DNA from: an uncultured delta proteobacterium
Lineage (GTDB): Bacteria > Desulfobacterota > Desulfobaccia > Desulfobaccales > 0-14-0-80-60-11
Reading direction: 5' to 3'
Assembly (NCBI GenBank): GCA_963834795.1
Contig: CAWIDL010000021.1
Coordinates: forward strand, 134,243-198,242
DNA length: 64,000 nt
Every line of letters begins with the position of its first letter. Position 1 is the stretch's first letter. Positions 3,455 to 45,275 of this stretch are shown here, piece after piece. Below the pieces are notes generated by a model that was not told the DNA's origin, made no database searches, and worked only from the letters and a program-made list of their open reading frames with translations. A program made the position numbers and the translations under genes.

Positions 3455-4099
3455 ATGCGATACTTTACTCAAAGCCGATTCCCTCGCCTTTGGCTCCTTT
3501 TTCAGAAGACCATTGGAGGAACAGTTGACAAGCAGAGACTTGCTGTACGCGCATGGAAAGGAGAAAAACGTATCCTTGAAGTCGGATGCTCTGTGGGCAA
3601 TGTTTCCGATGCGTTCCGGCGCTTTCCAGATGTTCAATTCACGGGGGTGGACATTGATCGCGTTGTCCTAGAAGTTGCCATTTCGCGTTTTGCCGACTGT
3701 AAGGGTTGGCGCTTCTTGAATGTTTCATTGGCCGATCTTCGCAACTGCGGAGAAACATTTGACTATATTTTATTCGCAGGGATATTCCATCATGTGGATG
3801 ATGCGGTAGTTCGTAATTTGTTAGCTGATGTGCAACGAATTATACTTCCTCACACTAAGATTGTCATATATGATCCGGTGGCGCCTCGATCTGACGATTC
3901 TTTTCTTGTTAAGTTGTATTACCGATTAGAAGAAGGTCGATTCCTCCGCCAACATACCGCGTTACGTCATCTTATTAAAGAGAGTGGTCTTATGATTCGC
4001 AAGGAGGAAGAAGATGTGCCCATTGCGCCATCAATTTTTCGTTTGCCACAAGTGAGCCGGTTTTCCTACTTTGTCGCATGCGGACAAAATCCTCTTTGA
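3455..4099 (+). CDS. class I SAM-dependent methyltransferase
   Basis: 214 aa with motif I ILEVGCSVGNVS and FAGIFHHV. It lies in a lower-GC stretch. Confidence 0.7.
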   Translation: MRYFTQSRFPRLWLLFQKTIGGTVDKQRLAVRAWKGEKRILEVGCSVGNVSDAFRRFPDVQFTGVDIDRVVLEVAISRFADCKGWRFLNVSLADLRNCGETFDYILFAGIFHHVDDAVVRNLLADVQRIILPHTKIVIYDPVAPRSDDSFLVKLYYRLEEGRFLRQHTALRHLIKESGLMIRKEEEDVPIAPSIFRLPQVSRFSYFVACGQNPL

Positions 4100-30742: not shown

Positions 30743-31132
30743 ATGCAAGACGTAGAATCGGTTCTTGAGAAACTTCAAAACCGCGTAGATTCTATTCTTC
30801 AAAAACTCAATAAAGGAAGCGACATCCAAAAGATCAGAAGCGAAATTGCAGACCTCATCTTGGAGCATCTCGAGTTAGTGAAGAAATCGTTAGGATATTT
30901 GAAAAAGATGTATTTTGCCTACGCTATAAGCGCACTTGCTTGGAATATCAATTCGTCACATAAACCACCTCTTGATTCTTGGCTTCGAGTATGTCTGGTT
31001 AGCCTTGAGAATGCATTTATTGCGCCCGAACAGTGGAGCGCAAACGAACCGGCAAGAAATAGTCAGTTCGACGCTATTACTTTTGATCAGCTTATTGAAG
31101 CTATCACTGAAATCCGTACAAGACTGCAATAA
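30743..31132 (+). CDS. hypothetical protein (partner of the TIGR02391-like gene)
   Basis: 129 aa, AT-rich, helical/coiled N-terminus, with GGAGGG upstream. Its stop overlaps the next start (TAATG). Confidence 0.5.
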   Translation: MQDVESVLEKLQNRVDSILQKLNKGSDIQKIRSEIADLILEHLELVKKSLGYLKKMYFAYAISALAWNINSSHKPPLDSWLRVCLVSLENAFIAPEQWSANEPARNSQFDAITFDQLIEAITEIRTRLQ

Positions 31133-31932
31133 TGGGACGAATCGAGCCTTTTGATTCTCAACATCTTGAAGCAGCATGCCCAGTGCTAGCCGACACTGAG
31201 CGCGGGCTTACCGGTTCTCAGATTGAACGACTTCTTCAGGAAATAAAGGTTGAAGACGTTTCGCCCGGATTAACAAAATGGAAGCGTCTTTTCAATGCGC
31301 TAGCCGAAGCTCAAAACAAGCACCAGCTCGGCAATCATCTGATCATGTTGATTAATCGAGCAATGAATCCGGTCAGCTACGCTCGCGATAAGGCTGCTTT
31401 CGACTGGCGACGAAGTGAGCTTAATGTCGTTCTTGCGTTTTCCGGCTTCGGAGTCAGAGAAGACGGGAAGGTCGTGAGATCGAGTAAAGAAACAACACTA
31501 GCAGGCGCTCGTGCGCGTGCAGGACGTCTCCAAGCTGCCCTTGAAAGCCGAAATGTCCATCCAGAGGTTCTTAAATACTGTCGTGCTGAACTGCTTGAAG
31601 AGAACTATTTTCATGCTGTCCTAGAAGCCACAAAAGGTATGGCGCAGCGCATTAGAGACATGTCTGGCTTGGGCACGGACGGTGCAGAACTAGTCAACGC
31701 GGCATTCTCCGGCAAAGCGCCAATTCTCACGCTTGGCTCACTTAAAACAGAGACTGAGAAAAGCGAACAGAGAGGTTTTTCAAATCTTCTGGTTGGCCTG
31801 TTTGGCGCAATTCGAAACCCGGTTGCCCATTCGCCGAAAATCTCATGGCCCATGTCTGAACTAGACGCACTGGACATCATGAGCTTCATTTCATTTGTTC
31901 ATAGAAAACTCGATGGCGCAGTCAAAGTGTAG
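31132..31932 (+). CDS. TIGR02391 (Hypoth_Ymh)-family protein
   Basis: 266 aa. The C-terminal signature LLVGLFGAIRNPVAHSPKISWPMSELDALDIMSFISFVHRKLD matches my recollection of the family. Confidence 0.7.
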   Translation: MGRIEPFDSQHLEAACPVLADTERGLTGSQIERLLQEIKVEDVSPGLTKWKRLFNALAEAQNKHQLGNHLIMLINRAMNPVSYARDKAAFDWRRSELNVVLAFSGFGVREDGKVVRSSKETTLAGARARAGRLQAALESRNVHPEVLKYCRAELLEENYFHAVLEATKGMAQRIRDMSGLGTDGAELVNAAFSGKAPILTLGSLKTETEKSEQRGFSNLLVGLFGAIRNPVAHSPKISWPMSELDALDIMSFISFVHRKLDGAVKV

Positions 31933-35806: not shown

Positions 35807-35882
35807 CGGTCCCATCGTCTAGCGGCCAAGGACACCGCCCTCTCACGGCGGAGACACGGGTTCGATTCCCGTTGGGACTACC
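35807..35882 (+). tRNA. tRNA-Glu (anticodon CTC), CCA encoded
   Basis: 76 nt. Acceptor GGTCCCA/TGGGACT, anticodon stem CCGCC/GGCGG with loop CTCTCAC, T-arm ACGGG-TTCGATT-CCCGT. Confidence 0.95.
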
Positions 35883-36071
35883 AAAATCGTCCTTAACCTG
35901 CTTAAATTACTAAAGATAATTTTCAGAGACCCCCGAACGTTTCACCTTTCCGTCCACCTCCAGCAGCGCCTGACCTGCCCCCCAAAAACTGGTCCAAATA
36001 TTAAGTTAGAGATAAGCAAACCGATTCGAGTGGCGCGAGAAATGTCACCGCCTCCCCGCCTTAAGCAGCTA

Positions 36072-37184
36072 GTACTTAGTTGCATAAATCAGAGATACGA
36101 TTAGCCAAGCCTTTGGGATAAACATACCTTTTCCGCCATTGAAACGGTGCGGCTTGTGGATTGTAAGCCTGGACGAATTTATCGATAGCCTTCCTGACTT
36201 GTTGGGGGGAGGTGAAATTAGCCCCTTTGAGGGCACCGCGGCTGAGGATGCTGAACCAAACCTCGATTTGATTAAGCCAAGAGGCAGAAGTTGGAGTGTA
36301 ATGGAATTTAACCTGGGGATGCCTCTTCAACCACATATCGTTTTTGGGCTTATGGGTATTGAGGTTGTCTAAAATCACATGGAGTTCCTGATCAGGATAG
36401 TCAGCCAATATCTGGTTCATGAAGTCCAGAAATTCCACCCGCCGCCGTCGGTTATAGTGACCGGCTTTTACCTGACCGGTAGTCACTTCCAGGGCGGCAA
36501 ATAACGTGGTGGTGCCATGCCGCTTGTAACCGTGACTGAACCCCGTCAAGGTCTTGCCATTGGGAAGTTTCAGCCATCCCTGCGCTCTTTCCAGGGCCTG
36601 AATCTGGGGTTTTTCATCCACACAGATGACCACGGCGTTCTCCGGCGGGTCCAGGTAAAGTCCCACAATGTCCGCAGCCTTGCGGGCAAACTCGGGATCG
36701 GTGCTGACGCACCAGCTCCGGCGGCGTTCAAGACTGATGTTATGGCGCCGCAGGATGCGCCAGACCTGATGCTTGGTAACGTCACCCAAGGCTTCGGACA
36801 GAAGCCTGCCGTTCCAGCGGGCATAGCCTTCGGGAGGCGGTTCGTCCAGTTTTCTCAGCACCCGTTTTTCCGTGTCCTGCCTGTAGCTGCTGGGCTTCCC
36901 CGGTCTTTGGGCATCTTCCAAACCGGCCAGGCCTTCGCTGGCAAAGCGGGTCCGCCACTTGCTGACGGTGTTGGGGCGAACCTTCAAGTCCTTGGCAATG
37001 CCGCTGGTTTTTGCTCCCTGCGCCGCCGCCAAAATAATGCGAGCCCGCAGAACCTGGCGCTGTTCAGTTTTACTGTTACGTATCCTGGATTCGAGAATCC
37101 TACGGTCATCATCCGTCAATTGAATTTGAGTCGCTCTCATAATCGAGAGCCTATCATATATCGCTAATTAAAGCAACTATATAC
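36072..37184 (-). mobile_element. IS630-family insertion sequence (copy 2, different lineage from copy 1)
   Basis: TIRs GTACTTAGTTGCATAAATCAG (36072-) versus the reverse complement GTATATAGTTGCTTTAATTAG (-37184). TA duplications lie at 36070-36071 and 37185-37186. Length 1,113 bp. Confidence 0.85.
36076..37140 (-). CDS. IS630-family transposase
   Basis: 354 aa, intact, with N-terminal HTHs (RILESRIRNSK..., IAKDLKVRPNTVSKWRTRF) and the DDE core (VICVDEKPQIQALE, HVILDNLNTHK, TPTSASWLNQIE). Confidence 0.95.
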   Translation of the reverse strand: MRATQIQLTDDDRRILESRIRNSKTEQRQVLRARIILAAAQGAKTSGIAKDLKVRPNTVSKWRTRFASEGLAGLEDAQRPGKPSSYRQDTEKRVLRKLDEPPPEGYARWNGRLLSEALGDVTKHQVWRILRRHNISLERRRSWCVSTDPEFARKAADIVGLYLDPPENAVVICVDEKPQIQALERAQGWLKLPNGKTLTGFSHGYKRHGTTTLFAALEVTTGQVKAGHYNRRRRVEFLDFMNQILADYPDQELHVILDNLNTHKPKNDMWLKRHPQVKFHYTPTSASWLNQIEVWFSILSRGALKGANFTSPQQVRKAIDKFVQAYNPQAAPFQWRKRYVYPKGLANRISDLCN

Positions 37185-37309
37185 TAGACTGGCTCTATGC
37201 CAATAGAAGATTACTTGCCAAGAGCTACCCTTATCGGTGGTGGGGGAAAAATTCCAGATATGATTTGGCTAGCGAATTGGGGCTTTGGTGGAGGATTCAA
37301 GATTATTAC

Positions 37310-39034: not shown

Positions 39035-39400
39035 TCAGAGCCATATCCTGTCTAACGCGCCACCGGGATCAGCACCTCGTCGGAGCAGGAACCAGGGCAT
39101 GAAAGGTGGATTGTACCTGGCAAAGACAGGCTCATCCGTTATTTTTAGACCCCTTTGCCGAATGAGTTCCTTGAACCGACTCTCCTTTTCCTCATAGCGC
39201 TCCCTGTCAGCCAGATCTGCCCAGTAGGCTACCTGGTCTCCCATGACTTTGGACTCCACTTCGGTCATGTTCTGAGTAAAGCTTGGCCTGGGAGGATTGA
39301 GCCTGCATAAGAAATACTTCATCTCCCTATCATTGGGGCGGGAAAAATTGCGGATATGATCTGGATAGGGGAGGTTTTCAGGGTCTTGATAAGTTCCCAT
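39035..39400 (-). CDS. hypothetical protein (possibly YciI/dimeric alpha-beta-barrel-like N-terminus)
   Basis: 121 aa. KYFLCRLNPPRPSFTQNMTEVESKVMGDQVAYW resembles YciI-like proteins, but the C-terminus diverges. Confidence 0.5.
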   Translation of the reverse strand: MGTYQDPENLPYPDHIRNFSRPNDREMKYFLCRLNPPRPSFTQNMTEVESKVMGDQVAYWADLADRERYEEKESRFKELIRQRGLKITDEPVFARYNPPFMPWFLLRRGADPGGALDRIWL

Positions 39401-39499: not shown

Positions 39500-41077
39500 T
39501 TATAAAACATCGGTTAGCGCATCCAGTTTTTCAAGAAGCGGTAGCACACAACGATTCCGAAGAGCATTCATTATATCTTTTGTGATAACCTTTGTCTTCT
39601 GGATATCACCCCATTGCTCTCGAAGGTCAATACTGCCAATCGTGCTTGAAATACCGACCAATCCTTCGGCTCCTTTGTCATCAAGGATGACAGGGATTAT
39701 GTGCTCTTTACGACCTGATTGGGTCATAATGTCCTTTTCGTATTTGGTCCATACCTTGTCCCGGTAGTTTTGGTCAAGAAAGGCGAGATAGTATCGGCAT
39801 GATTCAGCATAGATGCGTCCTAACGTTTGTTCCAAATCTAAAGCAAGCAAGAAAGCCTGCTGATCGTAGTCATAAAACGTTACAACATCTTCGGACTTGA
39901 GCTCTGAGTTGACAGCCTCAACAATCTGCCTTGCCTCTCCAGCGAATGAGAATCCTACATCGTAGGAGAAAACTTTTGAGCGTTCTACGCTCTCATTTTC
40001 GATGCCTAGGTCTCGGTAAAGATCCTTCGACTCGAGGTAAGATAGGAAATACCGAAAGAGCGGATCTTCGATAGAGAAGCCACCTTCGGGATCGAAAGCA
40101 ATCTGCTTTCTGAGATCAACTTGCTTCAGGGGATCGAAAATCACTTCGGCAATGCGAGGACGTATTGCTTTGATTCCTGGCTTCCGACGATCTGGAACCA
40201 TGTTTAATATCTTATCGTAAGTTACAACTGAGTCGGGTATCCGGCATACTGCTAGCAGTACCTCGAGATAAGGTTTATTTCCGCCAGGCCGCCATTTCTT
40301 GCCCTTGGCGAAAGTCCTTGCGATGGGCATGTACCGCTGCAAAAGCTCGGTCATCAAACGCTGCCGTATTGATAGAAGATCGAATGTTAATATCTTTACA
40401 TCTTCTTGGGTCTCAAATACTTCTTGCGAAGAACAGATCTTGTTGCAGATATATTGAGCAAGCCAAAAGTTTCCCGCACTCTCACTCAGCAAGATATCAC
40501 GGTCTTCGAATATAATATTTAGAGCTTGTTCCCCTGCATCAATCAGGCGGTCGATTTCTCTGTCCTTGGCTTTTGGGAAGCGATAGTTTCCAAGCCTGGG
40601 TCCGAGGTCATAGGCATCAGAAAGTAACGATAATCCAGTTGTTGGAATCCCAATTAAAATGGTTTTCGGCGGCGACGCCTGCTCAAAAGCACGATCGCTT
40701 AAGCGCTTGAGGCTTGCTCCAATTTCTGCTCGTTTTTGGGTTGTAATGAGATGAAAATCATCAACAACAATTATTGGAGGGGCTGGCCGGGTGCTACAAC
40801 TGGTGGTTTCAAAAAAAAGGTTAATCTGGTTCTCAGCATCGTCATCGCGGCAACTAATGTAATTGTAGTCAAGGTCTTTTTGCCAACCCAGTTCTTCAAA
40901 GACTTTGTAGACTATGCAAGTCTTGCCTATTCCAGAGGGACCTTCGATCAGGAGATGTTTGCCCGGCTGCTCAATGTCGGCGCGTACCTCTCCGTAATAG
41001 GAGGGCTTGACGTAGGTATAAGGCGGTAAACCCACGGTTTTAAATACCTCTGTCAGCTGTCTCTTTTCCAACATCAT
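39500..41077 (-). CDS. P-loop ATPase fused to C-terminal TIR domain
   Basis: Walker A LIEGPSGIGKTCIV and Walker B PIIVVDDFH. C-terminal TIR: YDVGFSFAGEAR...VTFYDYD...YYLAFLDQNYRDKVWTKYE...IIPVILDD. The ATG at 41077 is preceded by GGGAGA; the track's GTG alternative is at 41092. Confidence 0.8.
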   Translation of the reverse strand: MMLEKRQLTEVFKTVGLPPYTYVKPSYYGEVRADIEQPGKHLLIEGPSGIGKTCIVYKVFEELGWQKDLDYNYISCRDDDAENQINLFFETTSCSTRPAPPIIVVDDFHLITTQKRAEIGASLKRLSDRAFEQASPPKTILIGIPTTGLSLLSDAYDLGPRLGNYRFPKAKDREIDRLIDAGEQALNIIFEDRDILLSESAGNFWLAQYICNKICSSQEVFETQEDVKILTFDLLSIRQRLMTELLQRYMPIARTFAKGKKWRPGGNKPYLEVLLAVCRIPDSVVTYDKILNMVPDRRKPGIKAIRPRIAEVIFDPLKQVDLRKQIAFDPEGGFSIEDPLFRYFLSYLESKDLYRDLGIENESVERSKVFSYDVGFSFAGEARQIVEAVNSELKSEDVVTFYDYDQQAFLLALDLEQTLGRIYAESCRYYLAFLDQNYRDKVWTKYEKDIMTQSGRKEHIIPVILDDKGAEGLVGISSTIGSIDLREQWGDIQKTKVITKDIMNALRNRCVLPLLEKLDALTDVL

Positions 41078-41351
41078 ATTTCTCCCAAACACGCCACCCA
41101 GCGCGAACCGTTCTTCCCGAGGTTAACCCCGAGAAGATTCCTCTTTTTGTGGCCAAATTGTCTTGTGGAGGGCATGATAGCACAAATTTTGAATGGCAAG
41201 GTATCTTTTTTGAGAATTGGCCTTACCAACCTCTTCCATAATTAGCGATCACTTGCCATGATCGGCTCTCATCGTAGGAGCGGTGAAAATACGAGATATG
41301 ATCTAAATTTCTATAACTACCATTTCAAAACGGTTCGAGGCATCGCCAAAC

Positions 41352-42524
41352 CTATTTGGCTTCAATAAGTTCCTCTCGCTCTAGCACACGACGAACTTCT
41401 TCGAAAACTGCTTTTATGTCTCCCTTGGGGAAGCGAATCTGCCCCAGGCCCTCGATATTGCTGAACTCCTCGCAACCTTCCTCCAGTAGTATGATAGCTC
41501 TTGAAAATCCAAGACGTCCTTGAAACAGGCCTGCCTCGTGAACAACATTCATTCGCGCATGATGCTTCCCGTCAGCTTGCTCATCCTCCCCAGTCATGAT
41601 CAAAAAAGCAATAGCCGCGGCATCAAGCATCTCAGAAAGACGTGCAATATTCGTTAGCCCAGCGACAGGCACTCGATTGAACTCGTCCCAGGGCAAGCGC
41701 AATCGGTCCTGGACGAAGTCTTTCAGCTCCCGCCAGATCGGGGAACGTCCGTGTCCGATAAAGACGTTCGTGCCTATCTCCCGTGAACGTTTGGATCGTC
41801 TCTGTTGCCGAGCGAGGTGCGAACCGGCCTTCTGTGCGAGCTGAGCCAAGCGACTGCAGGCGGCTGGTGCTTGCCTGAGGGTGGTGACCTCAGAGAGGAC
41901 TAAAAGGTGGGGCGGCACCTGAAGACCTTGTGTTACAGCCATGGAGTCTCTCGACATCAACGGTCTAGAAGGCAATAACTGATGAAGCACTTGATCTTTT
42001 GACTGGATAGCTGCCTGTTCTACCTGCTCCCTGAGAGACGTGATGAAGGGGTCCTCTCGTTCAGCCAGAGCCGTAGTCAAAATGGATAGTATATCCGGCT
42101 TGCTACTCTGGAACGAGCTTTCTGCACTGGACGCCAGGTGTCGGGCCGGTCCCAGGTCCGGGTTCCCTGCGATTTCGTATATCGTCCTCTCGATATCGTC
42201 GGGATCGTACTCGACCCACTCACCCTCTGTTGCTACGACTGGCCATACGCCCTTCATCCCCCATTCTGGGCTGAAATGGGCCTGCGGCGGGGGCGGCTTG
42301 AGATCCTTGTAGTAGATTCGGGCATGATATCCGAGGCAGGAGCCACTCCAGGCCTTCCTAACGCTAGCAGCTGCCTCCTCCAGACGCTCCAACGGTTCTT
42401 TTACTTCGGGAGCGGTGGCCTTCTGCGACAGGTCCCCGAGCCTCTCGGCAATCTCAAACAGTTCTTCGCTATGGTCACTTGTTGCCATCACGGTAGCCGT
42501 CTCCCTTCCGTCCTCTGATGTCAT
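41352..42524 (-). CDS. protein with unknown N-terminal domain and C-terminal TIR-like domain of the Cap12/Pycsar-effector type
   Basis: 390 aa. The last ~135 aa (NVFIGHGRSPIWRELKDFV...AIAFLIMTGEDEQ...HARMNVVHEAGLFQGRLGFSRAIILLEEG...SNIEGL) follow the pattern of the 'predicted nucleotide-binding TIR-like' family. Confidence 0.75.
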   Translation of the reverse strand: MTSEDGRETATVMATSDHSEELFEIAERLGDLSQKATAPEVKEPLERLEEAAASVRKAWSGSCLGYHARIYYKDLKPPPPQAHFSPEWGMKGVWPVVATEGEWVEYDPDDIERTIYEIAGNPDLGPARHLASSAESSFQSSKPDILSILTTALAEREDPFITSLREQVEQAAIQSKDQVLHQLLPSRPLMSRDSMAVTQGLQVPPHLLVLSEVTTLRQAPAACSRLAQLAQKAGSHLARQQRRSKRSREIGTNVFIGHGRSPIWRELKDFVQDRLRLPWDEFNRVPVAGLTNIARLSEMLDAAAIAFLIMTGEDEQADGKHHARMNVVHEAGLFQGRLGFSRAIILLEEGCEEFSNIEGLGQIRFPKGDIKAVFEEVRRVLEREELIEAK

Positions 42525-42536
42525 GGATATTAAGAA

Positions 42537-43112
42537 TCACATGATACATAGCCCCTTGATGGGTTCATATTCGCCTTTTTTAATAGTCATAAAATTCTTT
42601 GCTATTGGATAACAACCCGCAATGCAATTAGTTAACTTTGACATATTGGACAGAGACAAACGAGCTTGCAGAACAAGGTTTTCAAAGGTATCAATGTCGT
42701 ATTTTAACTGTTTAGTAGCTGATCCAGTTTTCTTTTTATGCAGCTTTTGACCAAGAGCAATTGCTTGTTTCCTTCCTTCCAGTTCTTGCTCAATTAAAAA
42801 CCATTTTACATGTAGCAGGTTATTTCTATCTGGAATCAATTTTTGAAAAGTCGAAAATACATAATCGATTATTTTAGCGGTTTCGGCATCTGGTTTCAGG
42901 TGCTCATAACATAAGCTATGAAACAAAGCCCTTAGAGGTTCAGCTGTCAAGTCAGCTAACAAGATTTCTTGAACTCGGTCACTCTTGAGCCCTTCCATTG
43001 TAAGGATGGACCTAATCCCACTCTCCATCGTTTGGCAAACTTGCTCAAACTCAACGACAAATTTTCCAATGTTTCCATAAATGGAAGATATATTTTTTTC
43101 TTTCTCAGCCAT
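42537..43112 (-). CDS. HEPN-like protein (Rx4H motif)
   Basis: 191 aa, AT-rich, predicted helical, with an R-x4-H motif in LIPDRNNLLHVKW. It ends 12 nt before the next gene. Confidence 0.5.
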   Translation of the reverse strand: MAEKEKNISSIYGNIGKFVVEFEQVCQTMESGIRSILTMEGLKSDRVQEILLADLTAEPLRALFHSLCYEHLKPDAETAKIIDYVFSTFQKLIPDRNNLLHVKWFLIEQELEGRKQAIALGQKLHKKKTGSATKQLKYDIDTFENLVLQARLSLSNMSKLTNCIAGCYPIAKNFMTIKKGEYEPIKGLCIM

Positions 43113-43274
43113 GGCTATTCAGACCAGCGCACATAAGTAATCCGGGGTATAATAGGAAGGTCTATGCGTACTAGCTTGCCAAAAAAGAAATTATCCTCAA
43201 TCTCCAAAAAATTTCAGATATGGTTCGGATATGTTGAATTTCGGGAACTACCGCGCCTTTATCCATCCATGTAT

Positions 43275-44773: not shown

Positions 44774-45275
44774 GAGTTCTCATTTCTGGGAGATTTTTCT
44801 GTAACCTGCTACCAGCAGTTATACCAGGTTTTAAGTTAGGATAGGGTTCAAGTCAAGCCAGAGATGGTTTGACAAAGGTAAAGCGAAAATCTGGGACACG
44901 AAAGTTTCTAGAACTTGCCAATATCCGCTCTCCTGAGATCTTTGTATATAATTCGAATATGGAAATCTCTTAAAATGAAAAGCCCTGGGTTGAAATCCCC
45001 AGGGCTGCAAATGAGCTTTTACTTGATCCAAACTCTCAAATTTGAAATCAAACCGGCAAGAATACATGGCGAAATTTTCGCCAGTTTTGACTCAGATGTC
45101 GAAAGGCCTTCTGTCCAAGCCCTTGAAATTATTAGGCATGTAGATGCCAGTTTTTACAGGAAAAAGTCCCGTTGGGACTACCATGTGGCCAAGCCTGCCG
45201 CATAATCTCGGATTAAACGAGTTCATTGCACCAGGCAATGGCCTCCTCGTTGGAGAATCACTTCACATACGTCGT

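Follow-up and report, generated by a model that had tools for sequence, protein, structure and literature searches.

An unassigned N-terminal domain joined to a Cap12/Pycsar-type TIR-like domain and, in relatives, to alternative output modules: a candidate stand-alone sensor-effector protein

We analysed a gene for a two-domain TIR-like protein in a 64,000-nucleotide stretch of DNA (the window) from an uncultured delta proteobacterium (contig CAWIDL010000021.1). The gene, hereafter the target, is the 390-amino-acid (aa) open reading frame (ORF) 41352..42524 on the minus strand, whose translation is the sequence quoted in the original prediction for this locus. It joins a mostly helical N-terminal domain (the N-domain), which belongs to no family in the databases searched, to a C-terminal TIR-like domain. 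That the target is a self-contained sensor-effector protein of abortive-infection phage defence is a proposition we regard as evenly balanced. The TIR-like effector is already known, and the presumed sensor domain is the new part. Residue numbering follows the 390-aa ORF, and all features of the target lie on the minus strand.

The N-domain, presumed to be a sensor or regulatory module, spans aa 13-243 (41796..42488) by AlphaFold2 (AF2) modelling and profile searches. Residues 1-250 gave nothing significant in Pfam (2025 copy), NCBIfam 20 or PADLOC 2.0, and no family matched consistently when 20 homologues of the domain were scanned singly. Modelling of aa 13-243 alone from a 20-sequence alignment gave a predicted local distance difference test score (pLDDT) of 93.4 and a predicted TM-score (pTM) of 0.85. 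The model is mostly alpha-helical, with helices at 3-23, 27-44, 113-143, 147-158 and 193-230 (domain numbering) around a short beta-meander and loops. In Foldseek searches, neither the PDB (best E 0.32, TM about 0.2, generic helical bundles) nor the predicted viral structures of BFVD (best E 0.33) gave a significant match to it, and a profile search of PDB sequences brought up nothing but de novo helical proteins, which aligned with the first helix. The PDB library used contains STING, as the full-length model retrieved TIR-STING from it, and presumably also holds the SAVED, CARF, SLOG and cNMP-binding folds. Neither profile similarity (Pfam, NCBIfam, PADLOC) nor fold similarity (Foldseek) was seen to SAVED, CARF, SLOG, cNMP-binding, STING or Macro domains. 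Because there is no profile match and no fold match in a library containing STING, the N-domain, as modelled, is not a recognisable member of any known nucleotide-sensor class. The original prediction had described an unassigned N-terminal region of about 250 aa lacking SAVED, CARF, cNMP-binding and STING motifs; this description holds, extends to SLOG, and now comes with the confident model and fold search that it proposed as a check. Scattered matches in single family members (Bac_luciferase, E 0.09; OloA and PbeC, about 0.015) were set aside as chance, and matches to PDC-M14A/B in two fusion proteins (E about 0.002-0.008) as noise, since the family-wide scan did not reproduce them.

Invariant residues of the N-domain are concentrated in its loops and beta-meander, and its helices vary; pairwise identity averages 46% over this domain, against 79% over the TIR-like domain. 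The first core motif, WSGSxLGYHxxxYY...PPPPxxHFSxEWG (aa 59-89, 42258..42350), contains the invariant residues S62, G65, Y66, Y71, F84 and G89. The second, G-x-W-x-E (aa 101-105, 42210..42224), lies in a short beta strand and carries the invariant W103. In the third, RDSxAxxQGxxxPPH (aa 192-206, 41907..41951), R192, D193 and A196 are invariant, and H206 is invariant across the wider family. The domain ends in a long helix closed by QQRR, followed by a basic linker, SKRSREIGT (aa 244-252, 41769..41795), where pLDDT drops to about 60. An invariant core of this kind points to a ligand that is conserved, not to a phage protein that varies. Two catalytic readings were considered and rejected: the Arg of a putative HEPN motif (Rx4H in "ARKAGSH") is not conserved, being Q in the target and K, E, N or I elsewhere, and the spacing of WSGSxLG does not fit a serine-hydrolase GxSxG motif.

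The N-domain defines a large family in which the output domain is exchanged. Word-indexed searching with the N-domain brought up 69 proteins, almost all of them ~378 aa long and carrying PF10137, the family of the TIR-like domain. A HMMER profile search of 1.84 billion cluster representatives (clusters at 50% identity) recovered 1,287 at E <= 1e-3, including 505 at E <= 1e-30. C-terminal tails of 40 aa or more are present in 108 of the top 122 representatives; 76 of these 108 tails cluster with the TIR-like (PF10137) tail and about 30 are of other kinds. The alternative modules join at the linker SKRSREIGT and include a canonical TIR_2 domain (P0151, E 2.3e-25), a protein kinase (Pkinase; P0092, 2.4e-32), a PNP_UDP_1 phosphorylase (P0161, 5.6e-11), a GGDEF domain (P0087, 4.1e-16) and a DpnII-MboI-type restriction endonuclease (REase; P0193, 5.2e-52). 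Others are Hypoth_Ymh (P0120, 1.8e-34), which we take to be a HEPN-type family, the C-terminal part of PADLOC PDC-S05 (P0216, 8e-28), and modules with one to three hydrophobic segments resembling transmembrane (TM) helices by hydropathy (P0070, P0084, P0098, P0110, P0116 and the P0096 cluster, which has a hydrophobic C-terminal helix). The exchange can be precise: in P0021-P0028, with N-domains 64-68% identical, a module of ~140 aa replaces the TIR-like domain exactly after "SHLARQ", and contains one hydrophobic segment just below the hydropathy threshold used. The fusions to other effectors that the original prediction had proposed looking for therefore exist, with several alternative partners, and the pattern is that expected if the N-domain were a shared input module with interchangeable outputs.

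The distribution of the family is broad. When one genome was scanned per species, 220 loci emerged. They come from Deltaproteobacteria/Desulfobacterota, Alpha- and Gammaproteobacteria, Planctomycetota, Acidobacteriota, Chloroflexota, Actinomycetota, Nitrospirota, Verrucomicrobiota and further phyla, together with one archaeal (Methanothrix) metagenome-assembled genome. Sources include soil and sediment bacteria, a cyanobacterium and plasmids, with full-length homologues on plasmids of Agrobacterium, Ciceribacter and Klebsiella variicola; database names are generic ("nucleotide-binding protein", "TIR domain-containing protein"). The Klebsiella homologue (WP_228298560.1, 43% identical, full-length, named 'nucleotide-binding protein') is encoded on the conjugative IncF plasmid pKGB1a (NZ_CP071736.1, 28894-30033), near a DUF4231 gene, two small TIR genes, a TPR protein, Tn3 and a recombinase. 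At three loci (L029, L048 and L085) the family copy is split into two or three ORFs, and at L085 the TIR-like part lies ~1 kb away from the last N-domain fragment. Such broken copies look like pseudogenes or insertions and suggest gene turnover.

The TIR-like domain covers aa 253-383 (41376..41768), as delimited by PF10137, Foldseek and phmmer. PF10137 (CAP12-PCTIR_TIR) matches aa 253-365, the Pfam envelope, at E 2e-19 and 70.2 bits against a cut-off of 24.7, over profile positions 1-117 of 119, in agreement with the Cap12/Pycsar-type effector domain that the original prediction had placed at the C-terminus. Modelled in full with AF2 (38-sequence alignment, mean pLDDT 85), the protein alternates beta and alpha elements over aa 253-383. 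In the PDB, Foldseek ranks TIR-STING first (TIR domains of 9lmq and 7un8, E about 1e-4), ahead of the TIRs of MyD88, SPARTA and TLRs; model and matches both indicate a TIR/flavodoxin-like beta-alpha fold. In the SfSTING TIR-STING filament described in Nature in 2022, E84 is catalytic, F6, W33, F37 and L47 stack on the nicotinamide, S10, R78 and N80 form the polar pocket set, and D110 is supplied in trans by the dimer mate (PMC9402430). A phmmer alignment to SfSTING/Cap12 (7un8), corrected for the eight extra N-terminal residues of the deposited chain, pairs E84 with target E330, R78 with R324, N80 with N326, W33 with W279 and F6 with F255. E330, the predicted catalytic Glu (codon 41535..41537), lies in the motif R-x-N-V-V-H-E and aligns with the Glu of SfSTING NVVFEFG. 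Among 38 homologues E330 and R324 are invariant, and N326, W279 and F255 nearly so. The domain is therefore likely to hold an active glycohydrolase pocket, its exact chemistry being less certain.

The surroundings of the family were compared across 80 genome loci, using crude gene calls within three positions on either side, clustered all-against-all. There is no conserved neighbour: no neighbour family occurs in more than four loci. The closest homologue (81% identity) lies between housekeeping genes, adjoining an RNase E/G gene. In the window, family scans detected no nucleotide cyclase or CD-NTase family among the genes at ~31-49.5 kb, and across the 80 loci none was among the 25 most frequent of the 136 Pfam families in immediately adjacent genes; the earlier statement that no cyclase lies nearby stands in both settings. 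Because no neighbour is conserved in the 80 loci, and because the two genes flanking the target, orf191 and an AAA-TIR_2 gene, are absent beside its homologues, the target gene is a stand-alone unit.

Defence and mobility genes are frequent around it. The commonest Pfam families among the 150 immediate neighbours are Phage_integrase (4), PF10137 (3), Eco57I (3), N6_Mtase (3), Type ISP (2), AAA_21/AbiEii (2) and SIR2_2 (2). PADLOC matches at E <= 1e-10 in the same set include type I and type IIG restriction-modification (RM) systems, mad2/mad3, AriA of PARIS (2), Avs2, DpdF, BilD, PsyrT, HEC-01A and two PDC-S35 genes. Both of the latter are bona fide PDC-S35 genes (E down to 9.4e-99), directly downstream of the family gene on the same strand, in a Thermodesulfobacteriota (L028, 7146-7949) and a Thermoleophilaceae metagenome-assembled genome (L058, 7413-8276). 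They encode proteins of 267 or 287 aa with their own N-terminal part and PF10137, giving tandem TIR-like genes. Individual loci also show AbiJ_NTD4, an XcyI RM system, a type I RM system with PDDEXK_4, an OLD-like ATPase with HEPN_AbiU2, IS630 with a resolvase, VapC/Phd toxin-antitoxin (TA) modules, and DUF4231 with TIR genes.

The analysis itself shows how the domains are arranged, that the catalytic residues are conserved, that effectors are exchanged, that no neighbour is conserved and that defence and mobile genes abound nearby. We infer ligand binding by the core, activation through oligomerisation, NADase activity and a defence phenotype, in the following scheme. The invariant core (WSGS-x2-GY, EWG, G-x-W-x-E and RD-x2-A-x2-QG-x3-PPH) would bind a conserved infection-associated cue. 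The variable helices would form a scaffold around this aromatic and charge-rich core, and would relay the cue through a change in oligomeric state. The TIR-like domains would then pack together so that the active site is completed, as in TIR-STING and TIR-SAVED filaments (PMC9402430), and loss of NAD+, or a related glycohydrolase activity, would arrest the infected cell. No cyclase or other partner gene would be needed in cis.

Several points weigh against this interpretation. The literature searched holds no report of defence, NADase activity or ligand binding for any member of the family. Because the GGDEF and protein-kinase partners are not classical suicide effectors, the N-domain could be a general signalling input. 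In the TIR-like domain, SfSTING D110, which completes the active site in trans, corresponds to Asn356 and S10 to Gly259, and because of these replacements the chemistry of the target may differ from that of SfSTING. Several loci have housekeeping neighbours only, and the enrichment of defence neighbours is qualitative. Finally, that the conserved N-domain residues line one pocket is read from sequence position and secondary structure only.

Among characterised systems, Avs/AVAST, CapRel, DSR2 and SpbK are examples of the logic proposed here, with a sensor and a toxic domain in one polypeptide, swappable effectors, no partner gene, and a location in defence islands. The N-domain, however, has no detectable sequence or fold likeness to their sensors. 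SpbK is described as a TIR NADase defence protein in PMC12847820. PDC-S35, the best PADLOC match of the target (E 2.6e-11), is also a stand-alone gene of defence islands with a C-terminal PF10137 domain and an uncharacterised N-terminal part. Nonetheless, its five models match only target aa ~226-381 (E 2.6e-11 to 1.9e-8, against about 1e-99 for true members), and its proteins, of about 230-290 aa, have an unrelated N-terminal part of about 100-140 aa. Bona fide PDC-S35 members are, moreover, separate genes beside N-domain genes at the two tandem loci described above.

In the main rival, the N-domain would have a new receptor fold and would bind a nucleotide-derived signal whose synthase lies elsewhere in the genome or is phage-encoded, so that the protein would resemble a CBASS, Pycsar or Thoeris effector uncoupled from its cyclase. 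We consider this unlikely. The TIR-like domain belongs to the Cap12/PycTIR clade, the set of effectors fused to the N-domain (TIR, PNP, nuclease, TM) mirrors those of CBASS and Pycsar, and an aromatic and charged core that is invariant across phyla would be expected for a small conserved ligand more than for phage proteins, which evolve fast. The TIR of Cap12 (TIR-STING, SfSTING, the CBASS effector of 7un8 and 9lmq) is of the same PF10137 family and is the best PDB match to the target; its catalytic Glu and its R, N, W and F pocket residues align with those of the target, and by analogy NADase activation in the target probably depends on oligomerisation too. However, the domain order is reversed, with the presumed sensor N-terminal and the TIR C-terminal in the target, which lacks both a STING domain (no Foldseek match to STING structures) and a CD-NTase operon, and has Asn at the D110 position. 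With the NCBIfam Cap12 equivalogs, whose cut-off is 450 bits, the target reaches 32 and 26 bits, on the TIR part only. PycTIR of Pycsar is likewise a two-part protein with a C-terminal domain of the same TIR-like family (PADLOC E 6.9e-9), but only target aa 228-378 match, at profile positions 129-272 of 288. The N-terminal part of the target is left unmatched, there is no cNMP-binding Pfam match in it, and no pyrimidine cyclase (PycC) lies nearby. As with PDC-S35 and PycTIR, the PADLOC CBASS "Effector TIR" model matches only aa ~226-381.

TIR-SAVED and the CARF- and SLOG-linked effectors of CBASS, type III CRISPR and Thoeris (ThsA) share the principle of a ligand-binding domain gating a toxic domain through oligomerisation, and TIR-SAVED filaments are cited in the SfSTING paper (PMC9402430). 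The N-domain differs from them in being mostly alpha-helical, in giving no such profile or fold match and in having no linked signal synthase. For Thoeris, no SIR2, SLOG or Macro gene was found around the target and no conserved partner in the 80 loci, and ThsB models match only the neighbours of the target, weakly (E 0.027-0.034). Signal-dependent effectors are normally operon-linked to their synthase, which makes the lack of a cyclase or CD-NTase, in the window and among the commonest neighbour families, count against an orphaned receptor. The GGDEF fusion also places the N-domain ahead of a cyclase-type output, the position of a primary sensor; this fusion (L094, 2135-3352, P0087) stands alone among genes for MurJ, GFA and an autotransporter, with no effector able to read the GGDEF product evident around it. 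The fold, in addition, is unlike any known nucleotide receptor. The original prediction had framed the target as a cyclic-nucleotide-activated effector with its sensor missing; a stand-alone sensor-effector accounts for the protein equally well or better.

A non-immune role is rather improbable. In such a protein the N-domain would be a stress or metabolite input, and the TIR-like domain, instead of being a suicide NADase, would be an N-glycosidase for nucleotides or nucleosides, of the MilB/CMP-hydrolase or 2'-deoxyribosyltransferase type. The kinase and GGDEF fusions, the loci with purely housekeeping neighbours and the two substituted pocket residues (S10 to Gly259, D110 to Asn356) are all compatible with it, and the SfSTING TIR has itself been compared with the hmCMP hydrolase MilB (PMC9402430). 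A 79-aa ORF of Microcystis phage vB_MaeS-yong1 (MT855965.1, 3406-3645), 56% identical to target aa 284-362, is annotated 'CMP/hydroxymethyl hydrolase'; it adjoins a DDE transposase and is probably a TIR-like gene fragment carried into the phage. Against this, classical toxic effectors (TIR, PNP, REase, HEPN-type Ymh and TM modules) make up the majority of fusion partners. The distribution is patchy, and plasmids and islands carry the gene next to RM, Avs, PARIS and TA genes; pseudogenised copies are present, and composition is atypical for the host.

It is very unlikely that the protein instead works as a fused toxin and antitoxin, with the N-domain as a cis autoinhibitor released by proteolysis, or by a block of synthesis, on phage host shut-off. 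One N-domain restraining many unrelated toxic modules, the flexible basic linker between the domains and the frequency of TA systems among the neighbours would all suit this scheme. A pure inhibitor, however, would have to fit structurally unrelated effectors, TM modules included, and the invariant polar and aromatic residues borne on loops point to a specific binding or catalytic site, not to a generic clamp.

The probable coding sequence of the target is shorter than the longest ORF. The position of M13 is the start in all close homologues, and a Shine-Dalgarno-like GGGAG lies 12 nt upstream of its ATG at 42488, whereas the first ATG (42524) has none. Because the close homologues all start at M13 and GGGAG precedes only that ATG, the true start is probably M13, giving a coding sequence of 41352-42488 and a 378-aa product in which E330 becomes E318. 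In other assemblies of the same locus, gene callers report 378 aa, 390 aa or a frameshifted pair of 89 + 298 aa (L099-L101; P0015), and the pair looks like an assembly error. Scans for promoters and terminators did not outperform shuffled sequences, and they predicted no terminator in the gap from orf191 to the target.

Composition sets the neighbours apart more than the target. Its GC content is 0.551, against 0.453 for the downstream AAA-TIR_2 gene, 0.368 for the upstream orf191 and a window mean of 0.556. GC at third codon positions (GC3) is 0.58 (z -1.0), 0.46 (z -2.0) and 0.35 (z -3.0) for the three genes, relative to a baseline of 0.70 +/- 0.12 from 35 crude gene calls outside the island described below. 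The neighbours are thus the compositional outliers, and the target is only mildly atypical, with average GC and a GC3 slightly below the baseline. The original prediction had judged the gene by eye to be more GC-rich than its two neighbours; per-gene GC and GC3 values agree with that comparison, although the gene is not GC-rich relative to its host.

Window genes at ~31-49.5 kb comprise a Ymh-domain protein, SAM_HAT, MerR, MobB, MobA, tRNA-Glu, an IS630 transposase, NmrA/DUF2867 and orf121, followed by the AAA-TIR_2 gene, the target, orf191, FMN_red, LUD, a 3-hydroxyisobutyrate dehydrogenase (HIBADH)-type NAD-binding dehydrogenase, VTT/DedA, a response regulator (identified by eye) and MntP. 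The target lies in a low-GC, tRNA-flanked island among them. A repeat search found an exact 17-nt direct repeat, TCCCGTTGGGACTACCA, at 35867-35883 and 45167-45183 on the plus strand (two matches in the window, none expected from 100 shuffles). The left copy forms the last 17 nt of tRNA-Glu(CTC) (35808-35883, plus strand), in an attachment-site-like (att-like) arrangement. The repeats bound ~9.3 kb containing IS630, NmrA/DUF2867, orf121, AAA-TIR_2, the target, orf191, FMN_red and LUD. Island composition is atypical for the host at the target, AAA-TIR_2, orf191 and the ORF with the FMN_red domain (GC3 z -1.3); the epimerase and LUD genes within the repeats look host-like. No island-encoded integrase was found with Pfam or PADLOC, the only recombination gene being the IS630-family transposase (DDE_3 + HTH by Pfam; 36076..37140, minus strand), and small ORFs at the right end have no Pfam match. 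The tRNA-flanked island, together with the unrelated neighbours in other genomes, supports the mosaic origin that had been proposed for the locus.

The upstream neighbour orf191 (42537..43112, minus strand), a conserved hypothetical gene delimited by ORF and homologue searches, ends 48 nt before the M13 start. In a 5.8-billion-protein database it has just nine homologues (42-100% identity), and it matches no Pfam, NCBIfam or PADLOC family. A 62%-identical homologue in Desulfobaccales lies beside ParA-like and Fic/DUF1488 genes, with no target-family gene nearby. As a conserved partner orf191 was rejected: the small upstream ORFs at two other family loci (L001 and L010) are unrelated to it and to each other. 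The downstream gene (39500..41092, minus strand) encodes a 530-aa protein with an N-terminal P-loop AAA/STAND-like NTPase (AAA, E 3.9e-6) and a C-terminal TIR_2 domain (2.5e-9), and has partial PADLOC matches to PDC-S59 (3e-11) and PDC-S66 (2e-6). No such gene lies beside the N-domain family in the 80 loci, and it is probably a separate, independent defence gene. A multi-gene system, with orf191 as partner or antitoxin and/or the AAA-TIR_2 protein as co-effector, transcribed together with the target, is highly improbable: the three genes share a strand, with 48 nt from orf191 to the target start and no terminator predicted between, and two TIR-type proteins stand side by side, as TIR genes also lie near the Klebsiella plasmid homologue, but GC3 differs strongly among the three genes, orf191 occurs without the family elsewhere while small upstream ORFs at other loci are unrelated, and neither neighbour accompanies the family in the 80 loci or the closest homologue, which largely refutes the idea.

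Further features of the window were observed in passing. A direct repeat of ~44 nt occurs in four copies ~2 kb apart on one strand (37229-37272, 39325-39368, 41267-41310 and 43189-43232), with the core AAAAT-N4-GATATG. Three copies are intergenic, upstream in the minus-strand sense of the IS630 transposase, the AAA-TIR_2 gene and orf191 plus the target; the copy at 39325 lies inside the longest orf121 frame, just before an internal Met27. The core, a pattern derived post hoc from its copies, matches nowhere else in the 64 kb, and one copy overlaps a weak sigma70-like site (43217-43190). The repeat may represent a promoter or operator common to several genes, or what is left of an IS end. At 31132-31932 on the plus strand, a 266-aa protein joins an unassigned 140-aa N-terminus to Hypoth_Ymh (E 1.5e-44; GC3 z -2.2), the domain also fused to the N-domain in P0120, and probably represents a further stand-alone gene of defence type. 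A class I methyltransferase gene at 3455-4099 (plus strand; GC 0.456, GC3 0.40, z -2.55) may have been horizontally acquired.

In addition to its absence from Pfam, NCBIfam and PADLOC and the lack of a solved relative detectable by Foldseek, the N-domain did not appear in literature searches on PDC-S35, COG4271, DpnII-MboI with TIR and HEPN, and stand-alone TIR-like sensors, which returned nothing relevant; it may have been named in a computational survey beyond those searched. A 2025 bioRxiv survey of TIR signalling systems explicitly discarded stand-alone TIR proteins. Because at least one recent systematic screen discarded them, infection sensing by such proteins is largely unstudied. Tentatively, and as a possibility that we consider somewhat doubtful, the N-domain may be a new, phylum-spanning immune sensor fold whose core reads an infection cue and fires at least eight outputs (TIR-like, TIR, PNP, REase, HEPN-type, membrane, kinase and GGDEF). 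The cue would then be either a conserved feature of a nucleic acid or protein, or a small molecule or nucleotide that no linked synthase makes. In enterobacteria, the defence idea could be tested directly with the Klebsiella plasmid homologue. Identifying the trigger of the N-domain would explain the activation of a whole set of different effectors at once, and could reveal a new infection cue. If true, the proposed sensor fold would define a further family of single-gene defence systems, perhaps with an immune trigger or signal that is itself new.

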